Positions 1,632 through 39,402 of a stretch of DNA of 64,000 nucleotides are shown here, piece after piece. The DNA comes from an uncultured Chloroflexia bacterium. GTDB taxonomy: Bacteria; Chloroflexota; Chloroflexia; Thermomicrobiales; Thermomicrobiaceae. Under the pieces are notes generated by a model. The model was not told where the DNA came from, made no database searches, and saw only the letters and a program-made list of their open reading frames with translations. The stretch's first letter is position 1. The number at the start of each line of letters is the position of its first letter. The stretch lies in the NCBI GenBank assembly GCA_963763185.1, contig CAVXNZ010000004.1, positions 10,791 to 74,790 of the forward strand, in the 5' to 3' direction. A program made the position numbers and the translations under genes.

Positions 1632-2720
1632 CTATTTGAGCCCTTCCAGGTAGGCGACGAGGGCGTTCAGCTGATCTGGTGAAAAGTGGAAGCTCGGCAT
1701 GCGCGTTCCTGGTTTGATCTGCTGTGCATTGTTGATCCAGCGTGCCAGGTTCTCCGGATTGTTGACGAGCACGCCCGAGCCGATCCAGCCACGCTGGCCG
1801 AAGTCGGTCAGGTTCGGGCCGACCCGGCTGAGTACGTGGCAGGTGACGCAGGTATTGCTCTCGAAGATCTGCTGGCCCTGCTTGGCGAGGGCGGTCGACG
1901 GTGGCGGTGGACCGTTGCGCTCGTTGGCGACCCAGGCGTCGAAATCACTTTTCGACTGCGAGACGACCCGGATCATCATCCAGGCGTGTTCGGTGCCGCA
2001 ATACTCACTGCAGAAGCCGACATAGTCACCGGTTTGCGTCAGCTTCAGGTGCATGTCGTTGATCTTGGCCGGAATTGCATCCCGTTTCCAACCAAGCGCG
2101 GGAACCCAGAAGCTGTGAATGACGTCGCCGCTGGTGATGTTGAGCACGATCGGGGTGTTCGTGGGCAGGTGAATGTCCCCGGCGGTATCGATGCCGTAGC
2201 TGGGATACTGGAACTCCCACCACCATTGATGGCCAATGACGTTGATCTGGATCGGGTCTTTGAACGACTGGTTGACCGAACTCATGGTGAACCCGGAGTA
2301 GATGGCGAGTGCGGTAAGCATCAGCACCGGGATACCGATCCAGGTTGCCTCGATCTTCCGGTTGCCCGCTGTCTGAGCCGGCTCACCTTCCTGTCCGCGG
2401 TGACGATATCTCAGGAGGATAACGGTCAGGAGCCCAAAGACAATCAGGAGGACAATGCCGGACAAGATGAAGACGGTGATGAATTGGTTGTTGATGACCT
2501 TGCCCTCGATGCTGATCGGGGCCAGCGTGCGGAACCCGTTCTCGCAGTTACCCGCGGTCGGTGCGGACGGGAGATTGTTGCACCCGGCCGGGTTCATCTG
2601 GTGCAACCAGTTTCCGACATCGCAGCCGGTTAATATGATCAATAGGAGGCTGAGGGGAAGCAGCGCCCGAAGGCGGCGCGGACTCAAGACGCTCAGACGT
2701 TCTTTTCCCAAACGATTCAT
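1632..2720 (-). CDS. ctaC: cytochrome c oxidase subunit II with fused C-terminal cytochrome c domain (caa3-type)
   Basis: 362-aa ORF. CuA site CSEYCGTEHAWM, HSFWVPALG, C-terminal heme-c motif CVTCH, and an N-terminal lipobox LTGC. Confidence 0.93.
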   Translation of the reverse strand: MNRLGKERLSVLSPRRLRALLPLSLLLIILTGCDVGNWLHQMNPAGCNNLPSAPTAGNCENGFRTLAPISIEGKVINNQFITVFILSGIVLLIVFGLLTVILLRYRHRGQEGEPAQTAGNRKIEATWIGIPVLMLTALAIYSGFTMSSVNQSFKDPIQINVIGHQWWWEFQYPSYGIDTAGDIHLPTNTPIVLNITSGDVIHSFWVPALGWKRDAIPAKINDMHLKLTQTGDYVGFCSEYCGTEHAWMMIRVVSQSKSDFDAWVANERNGPPPPSTALAKQGQQIFESNTCVTCHVLSRVGPNLTDFGQRGWIGSGVLVNNPENLARWINNAQQIKPGTRMPSFHFSPDQLNALVAYLEGLK

Positions 2721-3086
2721 GATGCTCCTCAGGGCCCCCTCCTGGGTGAGAAGGTCAACCGAACATTGTCCTTTTTAGCTCTAGGCGACTTCAGCCTAAG
2801 GGCGTGTCAGAATAATTGGGACAAAAAAGTGAGAAAGGACGTGAATTGTCTCGTCTGGTCGGTCGATTTGTAGTCCCAACGGCCGTGACCTCGCGCCGCA
2901 CAATTCATGCCTATGATGCAAACCTTACCAATCCCAGCCCTATCGACTTCGGTTGCGGCGAGACTAGCAATTCCGTGGCCGAGACGCGTGAGAACCAGTG
3001 GGTTCCTTCGTTTGGGGTAATACTGGCGACTACCCGCCCGTTCACCGCGCGGGGACGGGAGTTGGTGATCCGTCAGGAAACCGGGA

Positions 3087-3111
3087 CCGAGCGACGCATC
3101 GCGTCGCTCGG
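3087..3111 (-). terminator. hairpin downstream of the SDR gene (11-bp stem ccgagcgacgc/gcgtcgctcgg, 3-nt loop)
   Basis: Perfect inverted repeat about 50 nt after the SDR stop. The minus-strand tail GGTTTCC is only weakly U-rich. Confidence 0.4.
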
Positions 3112-3161
3112 CTGAATCTTGAATTACGGTCGACTGTTATCAAGTCTTTCAGGTGGCTGAG

Positions 3162-3929
3162 TTACCAAAGCGCGGTGACACCGCCGTCCACGACCAGCAT
3201 CTGTCCGGTCATGAACGAGGAGTCGTCGCTCGCCAGGAAGAGCGCGGCGCGCGCCAGCTCCTCCGGCTGGCCGATACGCTTGACCGGCATCCGTTCGATC
3301 ATGCTTTGCTCGTGCTCGCCCGGGTCGGACCGCTCTCCGTGAAGAAGCGGCGTATTGACGGGACCCGGGCACAGGGCGTTCACGCGGATACCTTGCGCCG
3401 CGTGGTCGACCGCGATGGCGCGGGTCATCCCGACCAGCCCTGTCTTCGAGGCGCAGTAGGCCGCGGCGTTCTCGGTGCCGACCAGCGCCAGTTCAGACGC
3501 AGTGAAGATCAGCGATCCGCCTCCCGACTCGAGCATGCGAGGAATCGCATGCTTGGCACAGAGAAACCCGCCGCGGAGATTGACCGAGATCACCCGGTCG
3601 AACGCATCCTCCGGCATATCGATCACGTTGTAGCGTGCGCTGATGCCCGCGTTCGAGAACATCACGTCGAGACGACCAAACTTGTCGATGGTCATCTCTA
3701 CCAGTTGCGCCACCTGCTGGCTGTCGCTGACGTCTGTCGGCTTCCCGAGTACCGACGCGCCGAGCGACTCCACCGCGCTCTTCAATCGGTCCGCATTGAT
3801 ATCCGCCAATACAACACGGGCTCCTTCGGCAACGAAGAGCCGTGCGGTCGCCAGGCCAATGCCCGATGCTCCACCCGTGATGATCGCCACTCGTCCCTCG
3901 AGTCTTCCCGCCATGGTTCGTTCCTCCAC
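3162..3929 (-). CDS. SDR family oxidoreductase
   Basis: 255-aa ORF with the TGGASGIG cofactor motif and the YCASK (YxxxK) catalytic motif. Confidence 0.92.
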   Translation of the reverse strand: MEERTMAGRLEGRVAIITGGASGIGLATARLFVAEGARVVLADINADRLKSAVESLGASVLGKPTDVSDSQQVAQLVEMTIDKFGRLDVMFSNAGISARYNVIDMPEDAFDRVISVNLRGGFLCAKHAIPRMLESGGGSLIFTASELALVGTENAAAYCASKTGLVGMTRAIAVDHAAQGIRVNALCPGPVNTPLLHGERSDPGEHEQSMIERMPVKRIGQPEELARAALFLASDDSSFMTGQMLVVDGGVTALW

Positions 3930-27147: not shown

Positions 27148-28521
27148 TCAGTAGAGTGACGTCTCCGGGTCGAAGCGCTCGAGCCAGCGTTTGACCTCGC
27201 TCAAGAAGCTGGCGGCCTTCAGCCCATCGAGTGCCCGGTGATCGACCGACATCGACAGATTCATCATCGAGCGGATCGCGATAGTGTCGTCGATGACCAC
27301 CGGCCGTTTGATGATCGCCTCGGTGCTCAGGATGGCCGACTGCGGCTGAACGATGAGTGGCGTCGAGAGGACTGTGCCGAACGTACCGGGATTGTTGACC
27401 GTGAAGGTGCCGCCCTGGACGTCCTCGACGGTCAGGCGGTTCTCTCGCGCGCGAGTCGTCAGATCATTGGCCGCCCGCGCGATGCCGGCGATGCTCTTCT
27501 CGTCGGCGCCCTTGATAACCGGCACAATCAGCCCATCTTCGAGGCCGACCGCAATGCCGATGTTGACCGCCTTGCGCTGGATTACGCGCGTCTCGTCCCA
27601 GACAGCGTTGACATTGGGATGCTCCCGTAGCGCGTTGACCACCGCTTTGATCACGAACGGCAGGTAGGTGAGCGAGAATCCCTCTTCAGCGGCGAAGCGA
27701 TCCTTTGCCTGCTGGCGAGCCTGGACCACGCGCGTCATGTCGACTTCCATCCAGACGGTGACGTGTGGCGCGGTGCGCTCGCTACGGACCATGTGCTCGG
27801 CAATCTGACGCTGCTTCGCGGTGAGCGTGACGACCTTGTCGCCAGGGAAGATCTCGACCTGTCCCGCCGTTGCCGGTTGTGGCTCCGGAGCAGCCGGTGG
27901 CGCGGTCTGTGGCTGGCGATCCGGCGTGGCCGGTGCTGGCTGCTGAGACGGCGCGGCCTGTGGCTTGGTCCGACGTTCGTCGATGTATCTCAGGATGTCG
28001 CTCTTGGTCACGCGGCCGCCGTTGCCGTTGCCGTGTATCTCGCCGATATCGATGCCGTGTTCTTCCGCGATACGGCGCACGGCAGGTGACGATCTCGTGC
28101 GCAGCAGCTCCATCGCGCCGTCTTCACCGGTCGGCCGCGCGGAACGCTGTTCGGGTTTGGCGGAGGCCGCCGGAGTTGATGATTCATTCTGCTGGGCCGG
28201 TTCCGGCTGATTTGCCTGGGTGGCGACCTGGGTCGCCAAATCGGTCTCGGCAGGTGATGCCGCGCCGTTGCCTTCGTCGATCACGCACAATTCGGCGCCA
28301 ACTGGCAGGGTCTCGCCTTCGGTCGCGATGATCTCGACGATCGTGCCGGTAACTGGCGAGGGAACCTCGGCGTTGACCTTGTCGGTCGTGATCTCGACCA
28401 GCGGATCGTAGCGTTCCACTTGATCGCCAACCTGTTTCAGCCAGACACCGATCGTTCCCTCGGTGACACTCTCACCGAGCTTGGGCAATTGGACATGGGT
28501 TCCAGTCTTCGCGGTGGACAT
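27148..28521 (-). CDS. 2-oxoacid dehydrogenase E2 (dihydrolipoamide acyltransferase)
   Basis: Lipoyl domain (ITTDKVNAEV), an Ala/Pro linker, a peripheral subunit-binding domain (SPAVRRIAEEHGID) and the catalytic DHRALDG. Confidence 0.94.
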   Translation of the reverse strand: MSTAKTGTHVQLPKLGESVTEGTIGVWLKQVGDQVERYDPLVEITTDKVNAEVPSPVTGTIVEIIATEGETLPVGAELCVIDEGNGAASPAETDLATQVATQANQPEPAQQNESSTPAASAKPEQRSARPTGEDGAMELLRTRSSPAVRRIAEEHGIDIGEIHGNGNGGRVTKSDILRYIDERRTKPQAAPSQQPAPATPDRQPQTAPPAAPEPQPATAGQVEIFPGDKVVTLTAKQRQIAEHMVRSERTAPHVTVWMEVDMTRVVQARQQAKDRFAAEEGFSLTYLPFVIKAVVNALREHPNVNAVWDETRVIQRKAVNIGIAVGLEDGLIVPVIKGADEKSIAGIARAANDLTTRARENRLTVEDVQGGTFTVNNPGTFGTVLSTPLIVQPQSAILSTEAIIKRPVVIDDTIAIRSMMNLSMSVDHRALDGLKAASFLSEVKRWLERFDPETSLY

Positions 28522-28584
28522 AGGGCCAGGCCTCCTTCCGGTCGAGGCGGTTCACACTCTCTGGTGCCGGGATCGTGATGCCGG

Positions 28585-29571
28585 CTAGAATGCCGCGAGC
28601 TTGTCGAGCGCGGCGCCGATCTTCTCGGCGTTGGGGAGGAACGCCGACTCGAGCGGCTTGCTGTACGGCATCGCCGGCACTTCTGGCCCGCCAATGCGCA
28701 TGACTGGCCCGTCGAGCCAGGGGAACGCTTCCTCGGCGATGATCGCGGCTACTTCGGCGCCAAAGCCACCGAAGCGGTTTGCCTCGTGGACGATCAAGAC
28801 CTTGCCGGTCTTCATCACTGACTGCAGGATCATGTCGGTGTCAAGGGGCCGGAGCGAGCGCAGGTCGATCACCTCGATGCTCGTGCCGCCTTTTTCCTCC
28901 ATGGCCTTGGCCGCTGTCAGCGACTCCTCCAGCATCATGCCGTAGCTGATGATCGTGACGTCGGAGCCCTCCGTGACGATTTTCGCCTTGCCGATCGGGA
29001 CGACGTGGCCGTTGTCCGGCACCTCATCGCGAATCGCGCGATAACCCTTCTTGTGTTCCAGGAAGAGGACCGGGTCTTCGTCGCGAATCGCGCTGCGCAG
29101 CAGGCCAGCCGCATCGGCTGGATTGATCGGCGCGACGACCTTGAGCCCCGGTTCGCGAGTAAAGATCGACTCGATGCTCTGAGAGTGGTACAGCGCGCCG
29201 TGTACGCCACCGCCATACGGTGTGCGAATCACGATCGGTACGTGGAAATCGCCATACGAGCGATAGCGAATCTTGGCCGCCTCGTTGAGGATCTGGTTCA
29301 TGGCGGGGTGGATGAAGTCGAAGAACTGGATCTCGGCGATTGGGAGCAGCCCGTTCATCGACGCACCAATTGCGGTGCCGATGATCGAGGACTCGGCCAA
29401 CGGCGTGTCGATTACGCGATTTTCGCCGAACTCGTCGATCAGCCCGGCGCTGACGCGGAAGACTCCGCCGCGCTTGCCGACGTCTTCGCCCATGAGAATG
29501 ACGCGCTCATCGCGTCGCATCTCGTCGGCCATCGTGTCGTGGATGGCCTGAATCAAGGTCTTGGTCGCCAT
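28585..29571 (-). CDS. 2-oxoacid dehydrogenase E1 beta subunit
   Basis: 328-aa ORF with the transketolase-like pyrimidine-binding and C-terminal domains. Confidence 0.93.
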   Translation of the reverse strand: MATKTLIQAIHDTMADEMRRDERVILMGEDVGKRGGVFRVSAGLIDEFGENRVIDTPLAESSIIGTAIGASMNGLLPIAEIQFFDFIHPAMNQILNEAAKIRYRSYGDFHVPIVIRTPYGGGVHGALYHSQSIESIFTREPGLKVVAPINPADAAGLLRSAIRDEDPVLFLEHKKGYRAIRDEVPDNGHVVPIGKAKIVTEGSDVTIISYGMMLEESLTAAKAMEEKGGTSIEVIDLRSLRPLDTDMILQSVMKTGKVLIVHEANRFGGFGAEVAAIIAEEAFPWLDGPVMRIGGPEVPAMPYSKPLESAFLPNAEKIGAALDKLAAF

Positions 29572-29583
29572 CTCCGACTCCTC

Positions 29584-30606
29584 CTAGCTGCCGTAAACGT
29601 GGAGCAAAAGCTCAGCAACATCGGGATAGGGGGCTTTCTCGGCGAAGTCGGTCGCGTCGTTGACCGCTTCCTTGACCCGCGCGTCGATCTCGTTCGCTTG
29701 ATCTTCCGACATCACGTCCTCGTCGACGAGCCGCGCGCGGAAGCGCTTGTTAGGGTCGTGCGCGCGTTCTTCCTTCATCTCTTCGGCTGGACGGTAGGTC
29801 TTATCGTCGTCGTCACTAGAGTGAGCCGTGTAGCGGTAGACGAGGGCCTCGACGAGGGTCGGGCCGTCGCCGCGCCGGGCGCGCTCGACCGCCTCTTTCA
29901 TCACGCCATAGACGGCTACCGGGTCGGTGCCGTCCACCGTCACGCCGGGCATGCCGTAACCCGCGGCACGCTCGGAGACGTGCTTGATCGCCATCTGCTT
30001 CTTCTGTGGTACCGAGATGGCCCAGCCATTGTTCTCGATCAGGAAGATGACTGGCAGCTTGTGAATCGCCGCAAAGTTCAGCGCTTCGTGGAAATCACCC
30101 TGGCTGCTGCCACCCTCGCCGGTCGCGGTGAGTGAGACAGCGTCCTCGCCTTTGATCTTCGAGGCGAGTGCCACGCCAACCGCATGCTGCAGGTGATTGG
30201 CGACCGGACTCGATCCGGTGATGATGTGATGTTCACGCGAGCTGTAGTGGGCGGGCATCTGCCGCCCCTCGCTGGTCGGATCACCATGCTTCCCGAGGAG
30301 GCTGAGCATCATGTCTCGCGGCGTCAGTCCGAAATGCAGGGCAAGCGCGAGGTCGCGATAGTAGGGAAGGAGGAAGTCCTTCTTCGGATCGAGTGCGAAC
30401 CCTGCGCCCGCCTGGGCGGCCTCGTGTCCCTGACAGGAGATGACAAATGCCGCCTGACCGGCGCGATTCAACAGCCACATGCGTTCGTCGAGCGCTCTGG
30501 CAGTGGCCATCAACTCGTACATCTGTCGCAGCTGCTCGGCCGGAAGCTGATCGAGGCTTTTCTCGCGCTGTTGTACTCCCACCGGCCCGGACGTCGAACT
30601 CGTCAT
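29584..30606 (-). CDS. 2-oxoacid dehydrogenase E1 alpha subunit (ThDP-dependent)
   Basis: 340-aa ORF with the ThDP motif GEGGSSQGDFHEALNFAA...NNGWAIS. Confidence 0.93.
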   Translation of the reverse strand: MTSSTSGPVGVQQREKSLDQLPAEQLRQMYELMATARALDERMWLLNRAGQAAFVISCQGHEAAQAGAGFALDPKKDFLLPYYRDLALALHFGLTPRDMMLSLLGKHGDPTSEGRQMPAHYSSREHHIITGSSPVANHLQHAVGVALASKIKGEDAVSLTATGEGGSSQGDFHEALNFAAIHKLPVIFLIENNGWAISVPQKKQMAIKHVSERAAGYGMPGVTVDGTDPVAVYGVMKEAVERARRGDGPTLVEALVYRYTAHSSDDDDKTYRPAEEMKEERAHDPNKRFRARLVDEDVMSEDQANEIDARVKEAVNDATDFAEKAPYPDVAELLLHVYGS

Positions 30607-30651
30607 GGTGCAGCCTCCTGAACGTTGATGGGGCCCGCAGGCCCCACCCCT

Positions 30652-32046
30652 TTAGATGTGTATCTGGTGTCCGTCGACCGCAAGAGCGGCCTCTGCGATG
30701 ACTTCGGAAATCGTCGGGTGAGGATGGACGCTCTCGCCGATTTCCCACGGAGTCGCCTCGAAGAGCTTGGCCATGGCGCCTTCGGCGATGAGCTCGGTAG
30801 CGTTGCCGCCGATCATGTGAATGCCGAGGAGATCGTCGGTGTCCTTGTCGGCGATGACCTTGCAGAATCCGTCGTCGGCACCTTCGATGAGGGCCTTGCC
30901 GTTGGCTCGGAGGGGGAACTTGCCGACCTTGATCTCGTGGCCAAGTTCGCGCGCCTCTTTTTCGGTGAGCCCAATGCTGCCGATCTCCGGATGGCAGAAG
31001 GTGACGTTGGGAATGCGGAGATAATCGATCGGCAGCGGCTTGCCGCCCGAGAGCATCTCCATGATGAACATGCCCTGGTGCATCGCGGTGTGGGCCAGCA
31101 TCTGCTTGCCGATGACGTCACCGATGGCGAAGACGCCATCAACACCGGTGCGGAATTGATCATCGGTGACGATATAGCTTCGCTCGGTCTTGATGCCGAG
31201 TTCCTCGAAACCCATGTCCTCGATGTTTCCCTGTCGGCCGGTGGCGACCATCAGCGCGTCGGCCTCGACGACCTCTTCCTTGCCGTTCTGCTTGATGCGC
31301 AGGCTGACTCCGCCCTCAGTAATGTCGAAGTCGTCGGCAGTGGGGCGATAGCCGGGCACGATCTTGATACCGGCTTTGGTGAAGGAACGAGTGAGCTGCT
31401 TCGAGACTTCCTCGTCCTCGTTCGGGACCACGTTGCCGACCAGTGTCACCTCGGCTCCGAAGTCGTTCCAGACAGTCGAGAACTCCACGCCCGTCGCACC
31501 GGCGCCACGAACGATCACGCGCTTCGGCACCCAGTCCATCCACGTGGTGTGGTCGCTATTGATCACGCGTTTGCCATCGAACGGAATGCCGGGGATCGGC
31601 CGTGGGCGCGATCCGGTGTCAATGATGACGGATTTCCCGGTGACATCCTTGCGCGACCCGTCGGGGGCCGTAACGGTGACGGTGCGATTGTTCTTCAGGT
31701 AGCCGACACCTTCGTAGGTCGTGATGCCATGCTTGCGGAAGAGGAATTTGACGCCGTTGTAGTTCTTCTCGACGATCTCGCCCGAGCGCTTGACGGCCTG
31801 TGGATAGTTGGCCTCAACGCCACTGACGTTGACGCCGTATTCGGCGGCCACCTGCATCATGTGCATAACGGAGCCGCTCTTCAGCAGGGCTTTCGTCGGG
31901 ATGCATCCACGATGGAGGCATGTACCTCCGACCTTATCTTTCTCAATAACCGCAATCTTGAGCCCGAGCTGGGCTCCGCGAATCGCGGCAACGTAACCAC
32001 CTGTCCCGCCACCTAGCAGGACAACATCGTAGGCATCCTCTGGCAT
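30652..32046 (-). CDS. lpdA: dihydrolipoyl dehydrogenase (E3)
   Basis: 464-aa ORF with GGGTGGY, the redox disulfide GGTCLHRGCIPTK and the C-terminal HPHPT. The gene order lpd-E1a-E1b-E2 matches the Bacillus bkd arrangement. Confidence 0.95.
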   Translation of the reverse strand: MPEDAYDVVLLGGGTGGYVAAIRGAQLGLKIAVIEKDKVGGTCLHRGCIPTKALLKSGSVMHMMQVAAEYGVNVSGVEANYPQAVKRSGEIVEKNYNGVKFLFRKHGITTYEGVGYLKNNRTVTVTAPDGSRKDVTGKSVIIDTGSRPRPIPGIPFDGKRVINSDHTTWMDWVPKRVIVRGAGATGVEFSTVWNDFGAEVTLVGNVVPNEDEEVSKQLTRSFTKAGIKIVPGYRPTADDFDITEGGVSLRIKQNGKEEVVEADALMVATGRQGNIEDMGFEELGIKTERSYIVTDDQFRTGVDGVFAIGDVIGKQMLAHTAMHQGMFIMEMLSGGKPLPIDYLRIPNVTFCHPEIGSIGLTEKEARELGHEIKVGKFPLRANGKALIEGADDGFCKVIADKDTDDLLGIHMIGGNATELIAEGAMAKLFEATPWEIGESVHPHPTISEVIAEAALAVDGHQIHI

Positions 32047-32676
32047 GCCTGCTCCCCTCTACATCATCGTAGGTCCGCGCTCACCTGGCGGTCATGGGGC
32101 AAGGGCAGCCCGCTTCGTTCACATAACCTGCGCCGGATCAACTGATCGCGGCGTCCGTTCGTACAACATGCGAGCGAATGTCCCGCCGGTGACGGCTGCA
32201 CCTTCTGTGCCAAGATACACGCACCGAATTACGGGCGTCTCTATCGCCTAGTATAACAGTGGTCGCGCGGTGGCAGGTCCCAATATCGTAACGACTTTAC
32301 GCATTTCTCAGCAGCCAGCCGGTCACCTTCGCCCGCGAAATGGCGAATAGCATGGGAGTTTTGGCGTCGTTCACTCAAACGAACAGCGAATGTCGGGACC
32401 AAGGTTAACGAAATGCGGAAAAAAGAGATCCATCGGCTCCGGAAACGGTTTTGAGGGGCGTGGGCATGTCTTCGCCTGTACGAACGAACGTGGCACGCTG
32501 GCGACTTCGGCGCTCTATGCGGCCATGAGTCACGTTTCTATGAGCCTGTTCCATGAACCTGTTCGCTTGATCCCGTAGCGGACGAGACCCATCATCGGCT
32601 GCGTGTCTGAGTGTCATATCCAGGTCGATTTCCAGCGAATGCCCGGGCCGATTAGGAGAGCGGAAATTCATTCGGG

Positions 32677-33132
32677 ATGATGGCCAAATTCCTCATCCAG
32701 ACGCAGAAAATCTTCACCGAATTCGAGGCCAAAATCGTGCCGAGGAGTCACGGAATTTGGCATAATTACAGGATAGAAGATGGCCCCGGACCTGGAATGG
32801 AAGCAGGCACAATGTCGTTCGTATTTGAGCAGGTGGTCCCGATCGCGACGTGGATTCGCATGTCAGAAAAGGCCGAGCGAGAGGGACTGAAAGCGTTCCG
32901 AATCAACGATGATCGTCGATCCTGGGTCGTGACGAGTTACAGTCATGACGGCGTCGCGTACGAAGTGACGATTCTCGATGGTGATCTGCTCTGCTCATGT
33001 CGCGGTAGCAGCTTTCACCCGTATTGCAAGCACCGCGCACTCGTCCTGCAGGAGCTCGGCGTGCTCGACGACGAGGATGCCGACGGACCGCTCGTTCCTG
33101 ACCACGTCAAAACCGCTCTGTCCGCGGCCTGA
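32677..33132 (+). CDS. SWIM zinc-finger protein (small, stand-alone)
   Basis: CxC-x(n)-CxH pattern: LLCSCRGSSFHPYCKHRAL. The start is uncertain; internal Met codons give MEAGT.. or MSFVFEQ.. Confidence 0.65.
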   Translation: MMAKFLIQTQKIFTEFEAKIVPRSHGIWHNYRIEDGPGPGMEAGTMSFVFEQVVPIATWIRMSEKAEREGLKAFRINDDRRSWVVTSYSHDGVAYEVTILDGDLLCSCRGSSFHPYCKHRALVLQELGVLDDEDADGPLVPDHVKTALSAA

Positions 33133-33255
33133 GCTGATCGCCGAAACCCGGACACAGGCGGTTCGTCATAGTCAACGTGACGATGTAGCCTGGTCTCGTC
33201 GACGTCGCGCCTGCCGTATCGATGCTCGTCCTGACACACTCTGGGGATATTGCTC

Positions 33256-34086
33256 ATGGACTCTCGGTTCAACTCAACCGTCCCCGATCGGACCCTCCCG
33301 TTTGGCTGGTGGGGGCACCGGTCGAGTCCGGAGCGACCCTTCACCATCATCGATCTCCTGCGCGGGGGCAATCTCGACGCGCGCACCGCCGCGTTCCTCT
33401 GGATGGCAATCGAGCGGCGCGCGTCCTTCGTTGTGGCGAGCACGCTCGAGGATGCCGGCAAGACGACGCTACTGACAGCTCTGCTCGATTTTCTGCCGCC
33501 AAACATCCAGACGCTCTACCTTCGTGGCTGGTACGAACGATTCGATTTTCGCAAGACCCACGACCCCGCTTCGACCTACCTCCTCTGCAACGAGATCAGC
33601 GACAATCTCCCGACCTACATGTGGGGGCAGGGTGTCCGGCGCCTGTTCGAGGTCGCGGGAGAAGGCTTTCCCTTCGCGACGACGCTCCACGCCAGGAGCG
33701 CACACGAGATGATTGGCCTGCTCACGTCGTTCCCACTCGAAGTGCCACAAAACCTGGTCGATCAGATTGACCTGGTGTTGGCGCTCGACGGCGGCAGCCG
33801 GTCGTCGAACTTCATACGACGTCTGATGCGTGTCGAGTTGATCAACTCTGATGTTGAGGGTGTTCGTGCGGAGACGATCGTCGAGCGAGACGTACTGCAA
33901 GGTCCGCTCGTCTCGCGCCCGGGCAGGCTCATTGGAGTCCTGTCGGATCGCTTCGGGATCGACCGCAACGACGCGACGAGCGAGCTGGCGCGCCGGGAAC
34001 AATTCCTCGAACGGCTCCAGCGCGATGGCCTGCCCAAAGATGGCTCGCTGGCTCAAGCGATTCGCCAGTTTCGGGGCCGGTCCTGA
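33256..34086 (+). CDS. CpaF/VirB11/PilT-family secretion-ATPase-like protein with degenerate nucleotide-binding motifs
   Basis: ASTLEDAGKTTLLTAL sits where GxxGSGKTT is expected. LLCNEIS replaces the vGEiR Asp box. The His box TTLHARSAHE is retained. ATG at 33256 (the track starts at the TTG at 33250). Confidence 0.65.
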   Translation: MDSRFNSTVPDRTLPFGWWGHRSSPERPFTIIDLLRGGNLDARTAAFLWMAIERRASFVVASTLEDAGKTTLLTALLDFLPPNIQTLYLRGWYERFDFRKTHDPASTYLLCNEISDNLPTYMWGQGVRRLFEVAGEGFPFATTLHARSAHEMIGLLTSFPLEVPQNLVDQIDLVLALDGGSRSSNFIRRLMRVELINSDVEGVRAETIVERDVLQGPLVSRPGRLIGVLSDRFGIDRNDATSELARREQFLERLQRDGLPKDGSLAQAIRQFRGRS

Positions 34087-34158
34087 CCGCTTCCTTCCTA
34101 TAGGTCTGACCCCATGTCACGGGGAGCCTGGCGTACTCGTCACGCCGGCCCTTGCCAA

Positions 34159-34186
34159 TTGACATATGCTTGCCCGGTAGTACGAT
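34159..34186 (+). promoter_or_regulatory. sigma70-like promoter upstream of the AAA+/vWA operon
   Basis: TTGACA (34159-34164), 16-nt spacer, TACGAT (34181-34186). RBS AAGGAG lies about 10 nt before the ATG at 34283. Confidence 0.45.
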
Positions 34187-34282
34187 TAGGATCATCGTCG
34201 GTCGAGAATTTGCGTCTGCACGTTCCCACTGGACACATGACCCCACGGGACTCCCATCGGCGTATTAAGGAGCAGGTTTCAT

Positions 34283-35683
34283 ATGAGTAAGCCGCGTACG
34301 CTCGGCGAACTCCGCGAGAGCGGTTACCAGGTTTTGTCGGTGCGCGAAGAGATGCGCAAGAATTTGATCGAGAAGCTGAGATCCGGCGACTCTATTTTCC
34401 CCAATGTTCTTGGTTACGAAGAGACTGTGATTCCTCAACTCGAAAACGCCATTCTCTCCGGGCAAGACGTGATCTTTCTTGGCGAGCGTGGGCAGGCGAA
34501 GACACGCATGGCCCGTGGACTGATCAATCTTCTGGACGACGAGGTGCCGGTCGTCGCCGATAGCGAGATTAACGACAATCCGTTCGAGCCCGTGAGCCGT
34601 TTCGCGAAGGAGCGGATCGACGAGGAAGGCGACAGTACGCCGATCGAATGGCTGCCGCGCAACCGGCGCTATGCCGAGAAGCTTGCGACGCCGGATACGA
34701 CCATCGCTGACCTGATCGGCGAGGTCGACCCGATCAAGGTCGCCGAGGGTCGCTACCTCTCGGACGAGCTGACGATTCACTATGGCCTGATTCCCCGGAC
34801 GAACCGCGGCATCTTCGCCATCAACGAGCTACCGGATCTCGCCGAGCGTATTCAGGTCGGCCTGCTCAACATCATGGAAGAACGGGATGTTCAGGTGCGT
34901 GGTTATCGTATTCAGTTGCCGCTCGACGTCTATGTCGTCGCCAGCGCCAACCCTGAGGACTACACCAACCGCGGCCGCATCATCACCCCGTTAAAGGACC
35001 GCTACGGCTCCCAGATTCGCACTCACTATCCGAATACGATCGACCTCGAGGTCGACATCATGGAGCAGGAGCGTACCCACTTCCAGACCGCCGGTGTTGA
35101 CGTGGTTGTTCCCGATTACATGCGGGAGATCATCGCCGAGGTTACGCATCTGGCCCGCCGCAGCCACGACGTCAGCCAGCGTTCCGGCGTCAGTGTCCGT
35201 ATGTCGATCGCGAACTACGAGAACGTGGTGAGCAACGCGGTCAAGCGGGCAATTCGCCTGAACGAGAAGCACGCCGTGCCGCGCATGAGCGATCTCCACG
35301 CCGCTATCGCCTCGACCACCGGCAAGATCGAGCTGGAGGCGATGGGTGATGTGCGTGAGGATCGGGTGGTCGACAAACTGATCCAGGGCGCGATTCTGAC
35401 GACCTTCAATCGCTACTTCTCGTCCCGCGATTTCGACGACTTGATCCTCGGCTTCGAGAACGGGCTGACCGTCGAGACGTCCGACATGATGCCGGCGATG
35501 GAATACGTCCACCAGGTGTCGCACATGGACGGTATGCGTGAAGCGGCAACGACCCTGGGAGCCAGCGGCGATCCCGCCGCCATCGCGGCCACGGTCGAAT
35601 TCGTGCTCGAAGGTCTGCATCTCAATCGACGTTTGAACAAAGACCGTTCGTCCGGCGAGGGCGGCACACTCTATCGGGGGTAA
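34283..35683 (+). CDS. ChlI/BchI-like (Mg-chelatase/MoxR-class) AAA+ ATPase with atypical Walker motifs
   Basis: 466-aa ORF. P-loop FLGERGQAKTRMAR, Walker B GIFAINELPDL, then LLNIMEERDVQVRG and ASANPEDY..GRIITPLKDR. Confidence 0.82.
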   Translation: MSKPRTLGELRESGYQVLSVREEMRKNLIEKLRSGDSIFPNVLGYEETVIPQLENAILSGQDVIFLGERGQAKTRMARGLINLLDDEVPVVADSEINDNPFEPVSRFAKERIDEEGDSTPIEWLPRNRRYAEKLATPDTTIADLIGEVDPIKVAEGRYLSDELTIHYGLIPRTNRGIFAINELPDLAERIQVGLLNIMEERDVQVRGYRIQLPLDVYVVASANPEDYTNRGRIITPLKDRYGSQIRTHYPNTIDLEVDIMEQERTHFQTAGVDVVVPDYMREIIAEVTHLARRSHDVSQRSGVSVRMSIANYENVVSNAVKRAIRLNEKHAVPRMSDLHAAIASTTGKIELEAMGDVREDRVVDKLIQGAILTTFNRYFSSRDFDDLILGFENGLTVETSDMMPAMEYVHQVSHMDGMREAATTLGASGDPAAIAATVEFVLEGLHLNRRLNKDRSSGEGGTLYRG

Positions 35684-35687
35684 CACC

Positions 35688-37886
35688 ATGCCACGTTGGT
35701 CCGGATTCGACTCTCGCTACTCACGCTGGGATGGTACCCAGGAGATCAACCCGTTCGATGCCGATGCCGTCATGGACGCAATCTCGGACGACGTCCTCTC
35801 GGATGGCGATCTGAATCGCGCGCTGCAACGGCTGTTCCGGTGGGGTGCTCAGCAGCAGGATGGCACCCAGATGCCCGGCATGCGCGACCTGATGGAGCGC
35901 ATCCGTCGCCAGCGCCAGCAGGAGATGAACCGCTATGACCTCGGCTCGATTCTCGACGACCTGAACAAGGCCCTCGATGACGTGATCGACACGGAGCGCG
36001 CCGGTATTGAGGAACGGCTGCAGCAAGGGCGCGAGCGGCTGGAACAGATGCGGCAGAATCAGCAAGACCAATCTGGGCAGGAACAGTCTGGCCAGCAATC
36101 TGGTTCGCAGCAGGCTGGGCAACAGCAGTCCGGCCAGCAACAACCTGGAGGTCAGCAGGGACAGCAATCGGGCCAGGGCCAGATGGGCGAATCCGGCGAG
36201 CCGGGAGACGGCGACGCTGGCGAGTATGACGAGAACATCCACAAACTGCTCGAGCGCATGGCCGCGCGCAACCAGCAGGCGCTCGAGCAGCTTCCAGGCG
36301 ATCCGGCTGGGCGCATCAAAGAGCTAAACGACTACGAGTTCATGGACCCGGCGGCGCGGCAGAAATTCCAGGACCTGCTGGCGTCGCTCCAGCAGCAGAT
36401 GCTGCAGCAGACCTTCCAGGGGATGCAGCAGGCGTTGCAGAACATGTCGCCGGAAGACATGCAGGGTATGCGCAACATGCTGCGGGATCTCAACGAGATG
36501 CTCGAAGAGCGCATGCGTGGTGGCGAGCCCGACTTCGATCGTTTCATGCACAAGCATGGCCACTTCTTCGGTCCGGATATCAACAGCCTCGACGAACTGC
36601 TCGATCACATGGCGAAGCAGATGGCGGCGATGCAGAACCTGCTCGACTCGATGACGCCGGAGATGCGCCAGCAGCTGCAGGAATCGCTCGATGCGGTCAT
36701 GCGCGATCCTGAAATTCAGGAGCAGATGGGCCAGCTGGCCCAGAACCTTGGCCAGATGATGCCGAACAACCCGTATCGCAGCCAATTTGACGTCGGCGGC
36801 AGTGAAGATCTGACGCTGGGTGAGGCGATGCGGTTGATGGAGCGGCTGCGCGAGATGGAAGAGGTGGAGGATCAGCTCAAGGGCGTGCGCGACTGGCGCG
36901 ACCTGGAGAATGTCGACGACCAGAAGATCCGCGAGCTGCTTGGCGACGATATCGGTCAGGATCTCGACCAGCTTCGCCAGCTCACCAAGATGCTCGAGGA
37001 TGCCGGGTACATTCAGCGCACGCGTCGCGGCTACGAAATGACGCCGCTGGGCGTGCGCAAGATCGGTCAGAAGGCGCTAAAAGACATCTTCCAGCACCTG
37101 AAGCGCGATCGATTCGGCGAGCACAAGCTCGACCGAGCTGGCGGCGGCGGCGAGCGAACCGACGACACCAAAACCTACGAATACGGCGATCCGTTCCTGC
37201 TCGACCTGCCCAAGACCGTGATGAACGCGGTGCATCGAGACGGCGTCGGCAGCCCGGTACGGCTGCAGCCGGAGGACTTCGAGGTCTACCGCACCGAGAT
37301 GATGTCGCAATCCTCAACGGTGCTGATGGTCGACATGTCCCGCTCGATGCTCTATAACGGCTGCTTCACGGCGGCCAAGAAGGTAGCGCTGGCGCTCGAT
37401 AGTCTGATCCGCTCGCAATTCCCGCGGGACAATCTCTACATCATCGGGTTCTCGTATATTGCCAGCGAGCTGAAGCCGTCGATGCTGCCGAACATCAGCT
37501 GGGACGAATACAACTACGGCACGAACATGCAGCACGGCTTCATGCTGTCGCGCCAGCTTTTGGCTCGTCACAAGGGCGGCAACAAGCAGGTCATCGTTAT
37601 CACGGACGGCGAGCCTACGGCCCACTTCGATGGGTCACAGGTACGCTTTTCCTACCCACCGACCTACCAGACGTTACAGGAAACCCTCAAAGAGGTGGTG
37701 CGTTGCACCCGGGAGCGCATTACAATCAACACGTTCATGCTCGAGCGGAGTCCATACATGGCTGGCTTCGTCAGCGAGATGGCCAAGATCAATAAAGGGC
37801 GCGCGTTCTTCGCGGAGCCGGATCATCTGGGTGAGTACATTCTGGTCGATTACGTGGCGAACAAGCGCCGGCACGTTTATCAGTAG
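35688..37886 (+). CDS. vWA-domain protein with long helical Q/E/M-rich N-terminal region (BchD/CoxE-like architecture)
   Basis: 732-aa ORF starting 4 nt after the AAA+ stop. MIDAS motif LMVDMSRSM, and VIVITDGEPT in the C-terminal domain. Confidence 0.85.
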   Translation: MPRWSGFDSRYSRWDGTQEINPFDADAVMDAISDDVLSDGDLNRALQRLFRWGAQQQDGTQMPGMRDLMERIRRQRQQEMNRYDLGSILDDLNKALDDVIDTERAGIEERLQQGRERLEQMRQNQQDQSGQEQSGQQSGSQQAGQQQSGQQQPGGQQGQQSGQGQMGESGEPGDGDAGEYDENIHKLLERMAARNQQALEQLPGDPAGRIKELNDYEFMDPAARQKFQDLLASLQQQMLQQTFQGMQQALQNMSPEDMQGMRNMLRDLNEMLEERMRGGEPDFDRFMHKHGHFFGPDINSLDELLDHMAKQMAAMQNLLDSMTPEMRQQLQESLDAVMRDPEIQEQMGQLAQNLGQMMPNNPYRSQFDVGGSEDLTLGEAMRLMERLREMEEVEDQLKGVRDWRDLENVDDQKIRELLGDDIGQDLDQLRQLTKMLEDAGYIQRTRRGYEMTPLGVRKIGQKALKDIFQHLKRDRFGEHKLDRAGGGGERTDDTKTYEYGDPFLLDLPKTVMNAVHRDGVGSPVRLQPEDFEVYRTEMMSQSSTVLMVDMSRSMLYNGCFTAAKKVALALDSLIRSQFPRDNLYIIGFSYIASELKPSMLPNISWDEYNYGTNMQHGFMLSRQLLARHKGGNKQVIVITDGEPTAHFDGSQVRFSYPPTYQTLQETLKEVVRCTRERITINTFMLERSPYMAGFVSEMAKINKGRAFFAEPDHLGEYILVDYVANKRRHVYQ

Positions 37887-37933
37887 CACGCGGGTCACGC
37901 CGCGGCTGACTCGGATGGTGAGGGTCGGGGACG

Positions 37934-38227
37934 ATGTCAGGAAATAACGGGTCCGGAGTCGAGCTCTATCGCTACGAGGACATCCTGCGTGCGATCGGGC
38001 GCTACGTCGACGACCACGGACTGCAGGATGTCGTGCTCCTCCAGCTCGAGGATGGCATTCTTTTGCGCGGATTGGAGCCGTCCGCGGGCTCTGGCGACCG
38101 GGCGCTGGTCGAGCACATGTTCACGGCCAAGGAGATGGTCGAGCACATCTTCACGCCGGAGGACCTGGCACGAATTGCCGAGTCGGCCAAGCGAGACCGT
38201 GGTAAGGGCTCGCCGCTTTTCAGGTAG
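37934..38227 (+). CDS. hypothetical small protein (97 aa)
   Basis: Lies 47 nt after the vWA gene on the same strand, with good third-position GC bias. Contains the internal duplication LVEHMFTAKE/MVEHIFTPED. Confidence 0.6.
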   Translation: MSGNNGSGVELYRYEDILRAIGRYVDDHGLQDVVLLQLEDGILLRGLEPSAGSGDRALVEHMFTAKEMVEHIFTPEDLARIAESAKRDRGKGSPLFR

Positions 38228-38262
38228 AGCCGTCTCCGAGCACTCAAACACGGTTGAAAAGA

Positions 38263-38294
38263 CAAACCCGTGCGTCGCTCGACGTGCGGGTTTG
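38263..38294. terminator. bidirectional hairpin between the convergent plus-strand operon and the ABC importer operon
   Basis: 14-bp stem (caaacccgtgcgtc/gacgtgcgggtttg, 2 G-U pairs), 4-nt loop. The minus-strand tail is TCTTTTCAA and the plus-strand tail is CTATTGCGTT. Confidence 0.55.
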
Positions 38295-38484
38295 CTATTG
38301 CGTTACAGCCGGAACGGTCCGCGCCCGGCATGGCGTCGCAACAGGACATGGTCGCGATGTACTAAGAGCAGCTTGCGGAATGATTGGCGCGGTCGCGACT
38401 GCTGTAGTGTGATGCGCCACCTGACGGCTCGGGAGCAGAGCACCCAGAGGGTACCCGGCTCCCCTACAGACTCTGCTATTTGCT

Positions 38485-39402
38485 CTACCGGGCCCCGCCA
38501 CGCAGCATGTTCGAGAACCCATCCCCGAGGACGCTGAACGAAATGCCGACGATAGCGATGGCCAGTCCAGGAAAGGTCGGCAGCCACCAGGCCAGCGTCA
38601 CGTATTCCCGGGCGTCGGCGATCATCGACCCCCACTCCGGATTCGGCGCCTGCACGCCGAGGCCGAGGAACCCGAGTGCCGCGCCAGCCAGAATGTTGAA
38701 TACCACGACCGACATGGAATAGATCAGAGCGGGTCCGATCACGTTCGGCAACAGGTGGCGCACCATGATGCGGCTGTCGGTGCAGCCGAGTGTCCGGGCG
38801 GCGACGGTGTATTCGAGGTTCTTCGCGGCCAGCACCTCACCACGTATGAGCCTGGCAAAGGCCACCCAACTGACCAGGATCAGCGCGTAGTACATATTGA
38901 GCAGGCCAGGCCCCAGGACCGCGATAATCGCGATGAGCAGCACGTAGAAGGGGAAGGCGACTTGAATCTCGATGATCCGCATGAAAAGCGTGTCGACCTT
39001 GCCGCCGTAGTACCCCGAGATGCTGCCGATCACGATTCCGATCGCCAGTGGAACCAGCGCCGTGATGATGCCGACTCCGAGATCGATGCGTGCTCCATAG
39101 AGGATCCGCGACAGTTGATCGCGACCGAACTTGTCAGTCCCAAGCCAGTGGGCAGCGCTCGGCGCTTCCACGGCTGCGCGATAGTTCTGCTTGAGCGGGT
39201 CGTATGGTGCGAGGAATGGCCCCAACAGGCCGACCACCAGCACCAGTCCGACCATGACGATGCCGACGATAATCGTCGGGTTGCGGCGCGCCTGCTTCTT
39301 TGCACGCATCCACCGAGTCGGCCGTGCTAACTCGCGAGTCGCGAATGCTTCAGCGGTCGTGGTCATCAAAACGTCCTTACAGCGTGATGCGTGGATCGAC
39401 AA
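38485..39402 (-). CDS. ABC transporter permease (DppC/OppC-like)
   Basis: 305-aa ORF, 6 TM, EAA-like loop AARTLGCTDSRIMVRHLLPN. Confidence 0.92.
   Translation of the reverse strand: MSIHASRCKDVLMTTTAEAFATRELARPTRWMRAKKQARRNPTIIVGIVMVGLVLVVGLLGPFLAPYDPLKQNYRAAVEAPSAAHWLGTDKFGRDQLSRILYGARIDLGVGIITALVPLAIGIVIGSISGYYGGKVDTLFMRIIEIQVAFPFYVLLIAIIAVLGPGLLNMYYALILVSWVAFARLIRGEVLAAKNLEYTVAARTLGCTDSRIMVRHLLPNVIGPALIYSMSVVVFNILAGAALGFLGLGVQAPNPEWGSMIADAREYVTLAWWLPTFPGLAIAIVGISFSVLGDGFSNMLRGGAR

Follow-up and report, generated by a model that had tools for sequence, protein, structure and literature searches.

A widespread AAA+/vWA protein pair of the Rv0958/Rv0959 family lies in a conserved five-gene block in Thermomicrobia

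An AAA+ ring ATPase working with a partner that ends in a von Willebrand factor A (vWA) domain, with its metal ion-dependent adhesion site (MIDAS), is the motor-plus-adaptor arrangement of the chelatase pairs ChlI/ChlD (BchI/BchD) and CobS/CobT. Small operons in which an AAA+ gene is followed by a vWA/MIDAS gene also encode the MoxR-class pairs NorQ/NorD, CbbQ/CbbO, RavA/ViaA and CoxD/CoxE. In NorQD, the vWA protein puts a finger into the pore of the ring, and a linker is twisted by the motor (PMC13036017), and a preprint on CobSTN describes an adaptor shaft inserted in the ring, with the substrate subunit bound to the opposite face of the adaptor. A comparative survey has the vWA domain capture a client peptide and the AAA+ protein transmit a conformational change (PMC7159879). 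Here we describe a pair of this kind in a 64,000-nucleotide (nt) stretch of contig CAVXNZ010000004.1 (the window; assembly GCA_963763185.1, positions 10,791 to 74,790) from an uncultured Chloroflexia bacterium. The window has a G+C content of about 61%, and its closest relatives are Nitrolancea-type Thermomicrobia. The pair shares with the chelatase and MoxR-class systems the small operon, the gene order and the vWA/MIDAS end of the partner, and consists of a 466-amino-acid (aa) AAA+ protein and a 732-aa vWA protein, followed by a gene for a 97-aa protein (Table 1). An earlier note, made from the sequence alone, had read these three genes as an orphan, perhaps uncharacterised chelatase-like operon; the open reading frames (ORFs), promoter-like site, ATPase motifs, MIDAS and hairpin were all found where that note had placed them.

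Judged by alignment, the pair belongs to the Rv0958/Rv0959 family of Mycobacterium tuberculosis, which is widespread, strongly conserved and already catalogued with Pfam domains. Rv0958/Rv0959, MSMEG_5512 and mmar_4541 show the same two-gene architecture, lengths, domain order and vWA Pfam families as the window pair. The window vWA protein aligns with its Tsukamurella counterpart over its full length, through the N-terminus, the helical region and the vWA domain (E = 9e-91). In Tsukamurella the gene order is purN, purH, four intervening genes, AAA+ and vWA, which we take to be the Rv0956-Rv0959 arrangement of M. tuberculosis H37Rv. The window vWA protein is also 100% identical to a database entry (P0121) with precomputed matches to PF27532 (Mb0984_helical) and PF27098 (Rv0959_3rd), and both families are recorded on all of its close homologues. 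An exact database look-up of the AAA+ protein returned no identical record; it is 92% identical to a protein of a Nitrolancea metagenome-assembled genome (MAG) and 47-49% identical to the AAA+ proteins of Tsukamurella (47%), Nocardia and Nonomuraea. More than 8000 clusters of its relatives were scored at 90% identity, and there were 768 clusters at 50% identity with E <=1e-30. A scan of species-representative genomes gave at least 600 matches, the best 80 of which were 53-78% identical and came from Chloroflexota, Rokubacteria, Actinomycetota, Dormibacterota, Binatia, delta-proteobacteria/Myxococcota, Planctomycetota and Gammaproteobacteria.

The family is thus widespread and highly conserved, and M. 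tuberculosis has it too, but no function has been assigned to it. Its database names vary ("magnesium chelatase", "sigma 54-interacting transcriptional regulator", "AAA family ATPase"), and the names "magnesium chelatase" and "sigma-54 regulator" are contradicted by the sequence comparisons described below. Publications on the mycobacterial orthologues assign them no function and offer omics-level observations only. MSMEG_5512 of M. smegmatis appears in an RNA-polymerase-centred list from affinity purification and mass spectrometry, with no DNA association of the tagged protein, and it is a repeated ClpC1 interactor that is also listed in an earlier ClpC1/P2 knock-down study. A transposon insertion at position -49 of mmar_4541 was found among B12-resistant mutants of M. 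marinum, Rv0959 is an entry in a table of host quantitative trait loci, and Rv0958 is a "magnesium chelatase" by name only. The description of a motor without an assignable client therefore holds. "Uncharacterised system" is right as to function, although the system had not gone unseen, since Pfam domains and thousands of database entries exist for it.

The reading that we favour, with moderate confidence, is that the window holds an ordinary member of this two-protein family, in which a ChlI/MoxR-like ring motor and a MIDAS adaptor remodel a client. By analogy with the schemes described for NorQ/NorD, CobS/CobT and ChlI/ChlD, the 466-aa protein would form a ChlI/MoxR-type AAA+ ring, with the 732-aa protein as its dedicated adaptor. 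The intact metal site of the C-terminal vWA domain would grip an acidic residue or peptide of the client, and the long helical N-terminal part of the same protein would connect it with the ring. As nucleotide drives the ring to move, the adaptor would be twisted or pulled, and the client would be remodelled, for example by complex assembly, cofactor insertion or release. Remodelling or cofactor insertion is likewise the mechanism proposed for MoxR-class pairs. The same motor logic had been suggested in the earlier note, and it is supported by the homology to ChlI and by the complete MIDAS.

A PDB search gave ChlI, BchI and the LonB AAA module as the nearest relatives of the AAA+ protein with a solved structure, and ChlI (8osf) is matched with E = 1e-10 by the single sequence and 8e-15 by the profile. 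Pfam AAA_5 passes its cut-off (31.8 bits vs. 22) but AAA_3 does not (22.1 bits vs. 27), which would place the protein in the broad superclade and not in MoxR proper; unlike the ATPases of MoxR-class pairs, it resembles ChlI and LonB more closely than the MoxR models. Walker A reads GERGQAKT (residues 67-74) and Walker B reads FAINE (residues 178-182), and the protein thereby departs from the canonical GxxGxGK[ST] and hhhhDE motifs of the Mg-chelatase I subunit. Both the Walker A Ala and the Walker B Asn are real substitutions, because the HMMER alignment to ChlI lays GERGQAKT on GDRGTGKS and IFAINEL on ILYVDEV. They had been called atypical, which is correct in comparison with ChlI but not peculiar to this copy, as both are the family consensus. 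Walker B NE is found in 120/120 close relatives and in 135/138 representatives of the 50% clusters. AK[ST] in Walker A is present in 120/120 and 66/78, respectively, and GK[ST] in 0/120 and 12/78. Moreover, Walker B Glu182, a candidate sensor-1 residue (Asn223) and a candidate arginine finger (Arg240) are invariant across phyla. The motif statistics and these invariant residues together argue for a selected family signature, and the Walker motif oddities are a hallmark of the family and not decay. With its invariant Asn (NE for DE), the ATPase may be slow or tightly gated, and a natural, invariant Asp-to-Asn change in Walker B makes this family a useful case for AAA+ mechanism.

The same residues bear on an alternative in which the AAA+ protein is a nucleotide-binding switch or scaffold, that is, a pseudo-ATPase and no motor, and the vWA protein is mainly a static, MIDAS-dependent assembly platform. 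Replacement of the Walker B Asp by Asn in nearly all family representatives, and of the Gly before the Walker A Lys by Ala in most, would suit a protein of this kind, as would the degenerate Walker A of the adjoining FlaI-like protein (discussed below). However, cross-phylum invariance of Glu182, Asn223 and Arg240 is not expected of a dead site, and the canonical GK[ST] is kept in some members. We therefore regard a pseudo-ATPase as unlikely.

The N-terminal part of the vWA protein has a conserved RYSxWDGTQ module; a long helical region follows, and the protein ends in a vWA domain whose MIDAS is complete (VDMSRSM ... TN ... TDGEPT, comprising D549-x-S551-x-S553, T612 and D640). In alignments of 19 cross-phylum and 32 closer homologues, each of these residues is either invariant or conserved to at least 90%. 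Pfam VWA_2 covers residues 544-642 with 23.3 bits, which is under its cut-off of 27. PDB sequence searches with the vWA protein, both as a single sequence and as a profile, found no informative relatives. A Gln/Gly/Ser (Q/G/S) tract in this protein, predicted to be disordered by AlphaFold2 (AF2; predicted local distance difference test, pLDDT, of ~30), is lineage-variable, being absent or short in most homologues and present in this lineage and in a Dehalococcoidia MAG (locus L010). In the Binatia and delta-proteobacterial versions about 140 aa of the helical region are missing, and so is the Q/G/S insert.

Gene neighbourhoods were compared by tblastn with five window proteins (the pair, the 97-aa protein and the SWIM and 276-aa proteins encoded upstream) and by clustering of all ORFs from 80 loci, 70 of which were informative. 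In 54 of the 70, from many phyla, a vWA gene was located no more than 8 kb from the AAA+ gene, and the two are often tens of nt apart or overlapping; the gap is 4 nt in the window and 0 nt in L012, and the genes overlap by 8 nt in Tsukamurella. Outside the Chloroflexota, the vWA gene is the sole partner of the AAA+ gene that was found. Loci with no vWA gene at this distance include L013, L015, L022, L024, L025, L048, L050, L066, L070 and L080, and among loci of this kind are several from Dehalococcoidia/Tepidiformaceae, Dormibacterota and Limnocylindria.

Some of these observations count against a ring motor with a dedicated adaptor. The NE in Walker B and the Ala in Walker A could mean that hydrolysis is very weak. 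The vWA protein is without the AAA-like N-terminal domain of ChlD, its N-terminal ~480 aa being helical according to the alignment and the AF2 model, and because that model is poor (pLDDT 60, predicted TM-score 0.33) the element that couples to the ring is not pinned down. Foldseek matched the model to vWA domains only, and non-significantly; the best match, NorD in the NorQD complex, had E = 0.045. Finally, 16 of the 70 informative loci have no vWA gene within 8 kb, so that as far as gene order goes the two need not be paired.

NorQ/NorD-, Cbb- and Cox-type pairs adjoin the genes of their clients (nor, cbb and cox), whereas the window pair has no conserved client gene nearby. A conserved client gene was sought by clustering the neighbours from all 80 loci, and lineage-specific synteny was all that emerged (sdhAB, FTCD, WhiB-like, GH2 and pheA-hisC-tyrA-aroA-cmk-rpsA-HIT). 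The neighbours in Actinomycetota are sdhAB (sdhA/sdhB lie upstream in 14 loci), a formiminotransferase gene (FTCD) and a WhiB-like gene; those in Mycobacteriales are purNH, and those in Binatia and delta-proteobacteria are the pheA-hisC-tyrA-aroA-cmk-rpsA-HIT genes. Thermomicrobia have a 2-oxoacid dehydrogenase operon (E3-E1alpha-E1beta-E2), citrate synthase and lipoate-protein ligase-like (LplA) genes near the pair (window 27148-32046, minus strand; L084 9636-10686; L087 9905-10968 and 3882-4997). The tricarboxylic acid (TCA) cycle and lipoate neighbours, namely 2-oxoacid dehydrogenase, LplA, citrate synthase and sdhAB, were considered as a pointer to the client; the association is suggestive but was rejected as evidence because the gene concerned changes from one lineage to the next. 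Given its strong conservation and its position among genes of core metabolism, the pair most likely has a conserved housekeeping protein or complex, and not an invader, as its client. Once identified, this client would extend core bacterial physiology by a new AAA+/vWA remodelling pathway and would allow thousands of annotations to be corrected. A more far-reaching version, to which we give only a small chance, is that the pair is a housekeeping remodeller equivalent to midasin- or MoxR-like machines and acts on a universal complex, such as a respiratory or TCA enzyme, the ribosome or RNA polymerase. The NE Walker B would in that case mark a distinct gated AAA+ cycle, and in Thermomicrobia the truncated FlaI-type ATPase, the SWIM protein and the 97-aa subunit would contribute to a two-ATPase machine with no described parallel.

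The neighbourhoods also speak to the suggestion, made in the earlier note, of a conflict module. AAA+/vWA pairs with variable third components have been described as conflict systems (PMC7159879), and others as threat sensors in Actinomycetota. The accessory genes in the window are lineage-restricted, and the SWIM, FlaI-like and 97-aa proteins could be the sensor or effector parts of such a MoxR-vWA-type threat-sensing module. However, PADLOC gave 0 matches for the five proteins, Pfam and NCBIfam scans of the same proteins revealed neither an effector-type domain nor a VMAP-type third component, and a PHROGs search found nothing meaningful. Phage and viral searches returned no relatives, and the 4 matches in a plasmid collection are all to non-mobilizable large replicons. 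Conflict genes usually diversify fast, whereas the AAA+ protein keeps the cross-phylum identity given above. Its flanks are stable housekeeping genes, and variation among the Nitrolancea relatives is limited to the downstream flank. It is therefore improbable that the pair serves in conflict, and the suggestion is not supported by the contexts seen here.

Could the pair instead be the I/D-type motor of a true tetrapyrrole chelatase (Mg or Co), whose CobN/BchH subunit is encoded elsewhere in the genome? The closest solved or curated relatives are ChlI, BchI, BchD and a putative cobaltochelatase family, and the B12-resistant M. marinum mutant with its insertion upstream of mmar_4541 would fit a chelatase. 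So would the hem genes that occur near the pair in Thermorudis (hemC, hemD and hemB, ~3.3 kb downstream of the last block gene) and near one Binatia locus. These are, however, the only 2 lineages with hem genes nearby among about 80 loci, and the conserved contexts are purNH, sdhAB or aroA-cmk-rpsA and not cob or bch clusters. The AAA+ protein scores 34-36 bits with the NCBIfam BchI, BchD and cobaltochelatase models against equivalog cut-offs of 467-779 (33.7 bits vs. 466.95 for TIGR02030, BchI/ChlI), and the vWA protein has no match to TIGR02031 (BchD) and 22.8 bits vs. 779 with TIGR02442 (cobaltochelatase). Where ChlD carries an AAA-like domain its counterpart has the long helical region, and the Walker B Asp kept by ChlI is replaced, so that NE stands against the DE of the ChlI/ChlD and CobS/CobT motors. 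Unlike ChlH/BchH or CobN systems, the window holds no H/N substrate subunit, since its longest ORF does not exceed 732 aa, and no CobN domain was found in the 8 ORFs scanned of the 22 neighbouring ORFs of at least 900 aa in the 80 related loci. The view that this is no plain chelatase stands; we consider a chelatase motor very improbable. The least credible proposal is the one behind the NCBI name of many members, a sigma-54 enhancer-binding transcription activator: Pfam Sigma54_activat does pass (26.1 bits vs. a cut-off of 20.2), in agreement with the database names, but the match is confined to residues 166-224 and profile positions 85-143 of 168 (59 positions), which is the generic Walker B/sensor-1 core, the AAA+ sequence has no visible GAFTGA loop or helix-turn-helix (HTH) or other DNA-binding domain, and the tagged M. 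smegmatis orthologue was without DNA association.

The motor-and-adaptor pair is not an orphan in Thermomicrobia, contrary to what had been supposed, as the SWIM gene and the gene for a 276-aa P-loop protein upstream of it are part of a conserved block. The order of this block (SWIM, a protein of ~276-300 aa, AAA+, vWA and a protein of ~95-120 aa) is shared by four Nitrolancea-group genomes and Thermorudis peleae; in T. roseum the SWIM gene is not listed and the other four genes are present. The limits of the block are defined by its downstream flank, which differs between these Thermomicrobia genomes. The genes of the block have different ranges: the vWA gene accompanies the AAA+ gene across phyla, the FlaI-like gene does so in part of the Chloroflexota, and the SWIM and small-protein genes are confined to Thermomicrobia. 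In comparison with Rv0958/Rv0959, the Thermomicrobia copy adds these three genes and the Q/G/S insert, and the five-gene elaboration is the sole locally unusual feature of a window pair that is otherwise a typical family member. The SWIM protein, the FlaI-type domain and the 97-aa protein are probably lineage-specific accessory or regulatory subunits.

Table 1. Coordinates of the AAA+/vWA locus, its accompanying genes and its putative transcription signals in the window.
Feature	Position	Strand	Remarks
SWIM zinc-finger protein, 106 aa	32812-33132	+	Pfam SWIM E=2.9e-5
Stand-alone P-loop protein, 276 aa	33256-34086	+	Homologous to GspE/FlaI C-terminal ATPase domain
Sigma-70-type promoter-like site, TTGACA-16 nt-TACGAT	34159-34186	+	10/12 consensus positions
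96-nt leader, -10 box to ATG; ends in AGGAG ribosome-binding site	34187-34282	+	
AAA+ ATPase, 466 aa	34283-35683	+	ChlI/BchI-LonB-MoxR superclade, Rv0958 family
vWA adaptor protein (putative role), 732 aa	35688-37886	+	Rv0959 family
Gln/Gly/Ser low-complexity tract within vWA protein, ~residues 123-180	36054-36227	+	
vWA/MIDAS domain, ~residues 540-732 of vWA protein	37305-37886	+	
Conserved small protein, 97 aa; last operon gene	37934-38227	+	Thermomicrobia-restricted
Intrinsic-terminator-like hairpin; 14-bp core stem, 5' side A-rich, 3' side T-rich	38260-38296	+	

Transcription of the AAA+, vWA and 97-aa genes as one unit had been proposed from a promoter at its head and a hairpin at its end, and comparison with relatives agrees with this. 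The promoter-like site is the sole consensus match in 32000-38700 (6.7 kb), a count that is not above chance (1 found vs. 1.8 expected). It is credible despite this, because phylogenetic footprinting shows both hexamers to be invariant in 5 Nitrolancea-group genomes, in which the DNA just upstream cannot be aligned. The 96-nt leader is almost invariant in the same 5 genomes, with diverged intergenic DNA adjoining it, and may be an operator or regulatory leader; an Rfam scan of it matched no family, and consensus folding gave weak covariation support. At the other end, the hairpin has a folding energy of -24.9 kcal/mol (z = -3.4; 0/200 shuffles as stable) and is kept with compensatory changes in the relatives L084-L086. 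The three-gene transcription unit is thus well supported in this lineage by the conserved promoter and leader and the compensated hairpin. In T. roseum, only 26 nt separate the AAA+ gene from the orthologue of the 276-aa gene upstream, which makes it preferable to regard the promoter at the head of the unit as an internal one within a larger functional block.

The SWIM gene has orthologues at the same position in L002, L003, L084 and L085. Alignments show that its ATG at 32812 is conserved and that the start of a longer ORF at 32677 is not. An invariant TTGGCATAATT box about 45 nt upstream of the gene resembles an extended -10 element and provides a promoter-like site of its own. In L084, a Nitrolancea relative, an insertion sequence element with an rve integrase and HTH_Tnp_1 (2653-3770) lies between the E3 dehydrogenase and SWIM genes, and the five-gene block is intact despite this insertion upstream.

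The 276-aa protein has no Pfam match even at E=10, T2SSE included, but a profile of 10 orthologues matched the archaeal GspE structure 2oap (E=1.3e-29) and FlaI 4ii7 (E=1.1e-19). The homology extends to the C-terminal RecA-like ATPase domain only. Unlike GspE and FlaI, the protein has no N-terminal domain, has lost the first Gly of Walker A, which is thus non-canonical, and carries an insertion after a Walker B-like motif that reads NE; nor are there any pilus or secretion genes near it. From these comparisons it is a stand-alone, partly degenerate secretion-type ATPase domain and not a GspE or FlaI proper, although the T. roseum orthologue is annotated as type II secretion system protein E. 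The 276-aa gene precedes the AAA+ gene in 7 of the 70 informative loci, all Chloroflexota-type, and does so in every Thermomicrobia locus. In Tsukamurella, the pair is preceded by a hypothetical gene that is unrelated to it.

The 97-aa ORF is, by its conservation, a genuine gene, with 39 homologues that are all from Thermomicrobia and always follow the vWA gene; Thermorudis, T. roseum and the Nitrolancea relatives all have it in this place. The protein has no Pfam, NCBIfam, PADLOC or PHROG match. AF2 predicts, with moderate confidence, an alpha-beta3-alpha fold (pLDDT 74), for which comparison with the PDB gave no structural match. In 9 Actinomycetota loci (L043 4215-4541, L055 8904-9224 and 7 others), a gene for a small, Cys-rich WhiB-like protein directly follows the vWA gene, in the slot that the 97-aa gene occupies in Thermomicrobia.

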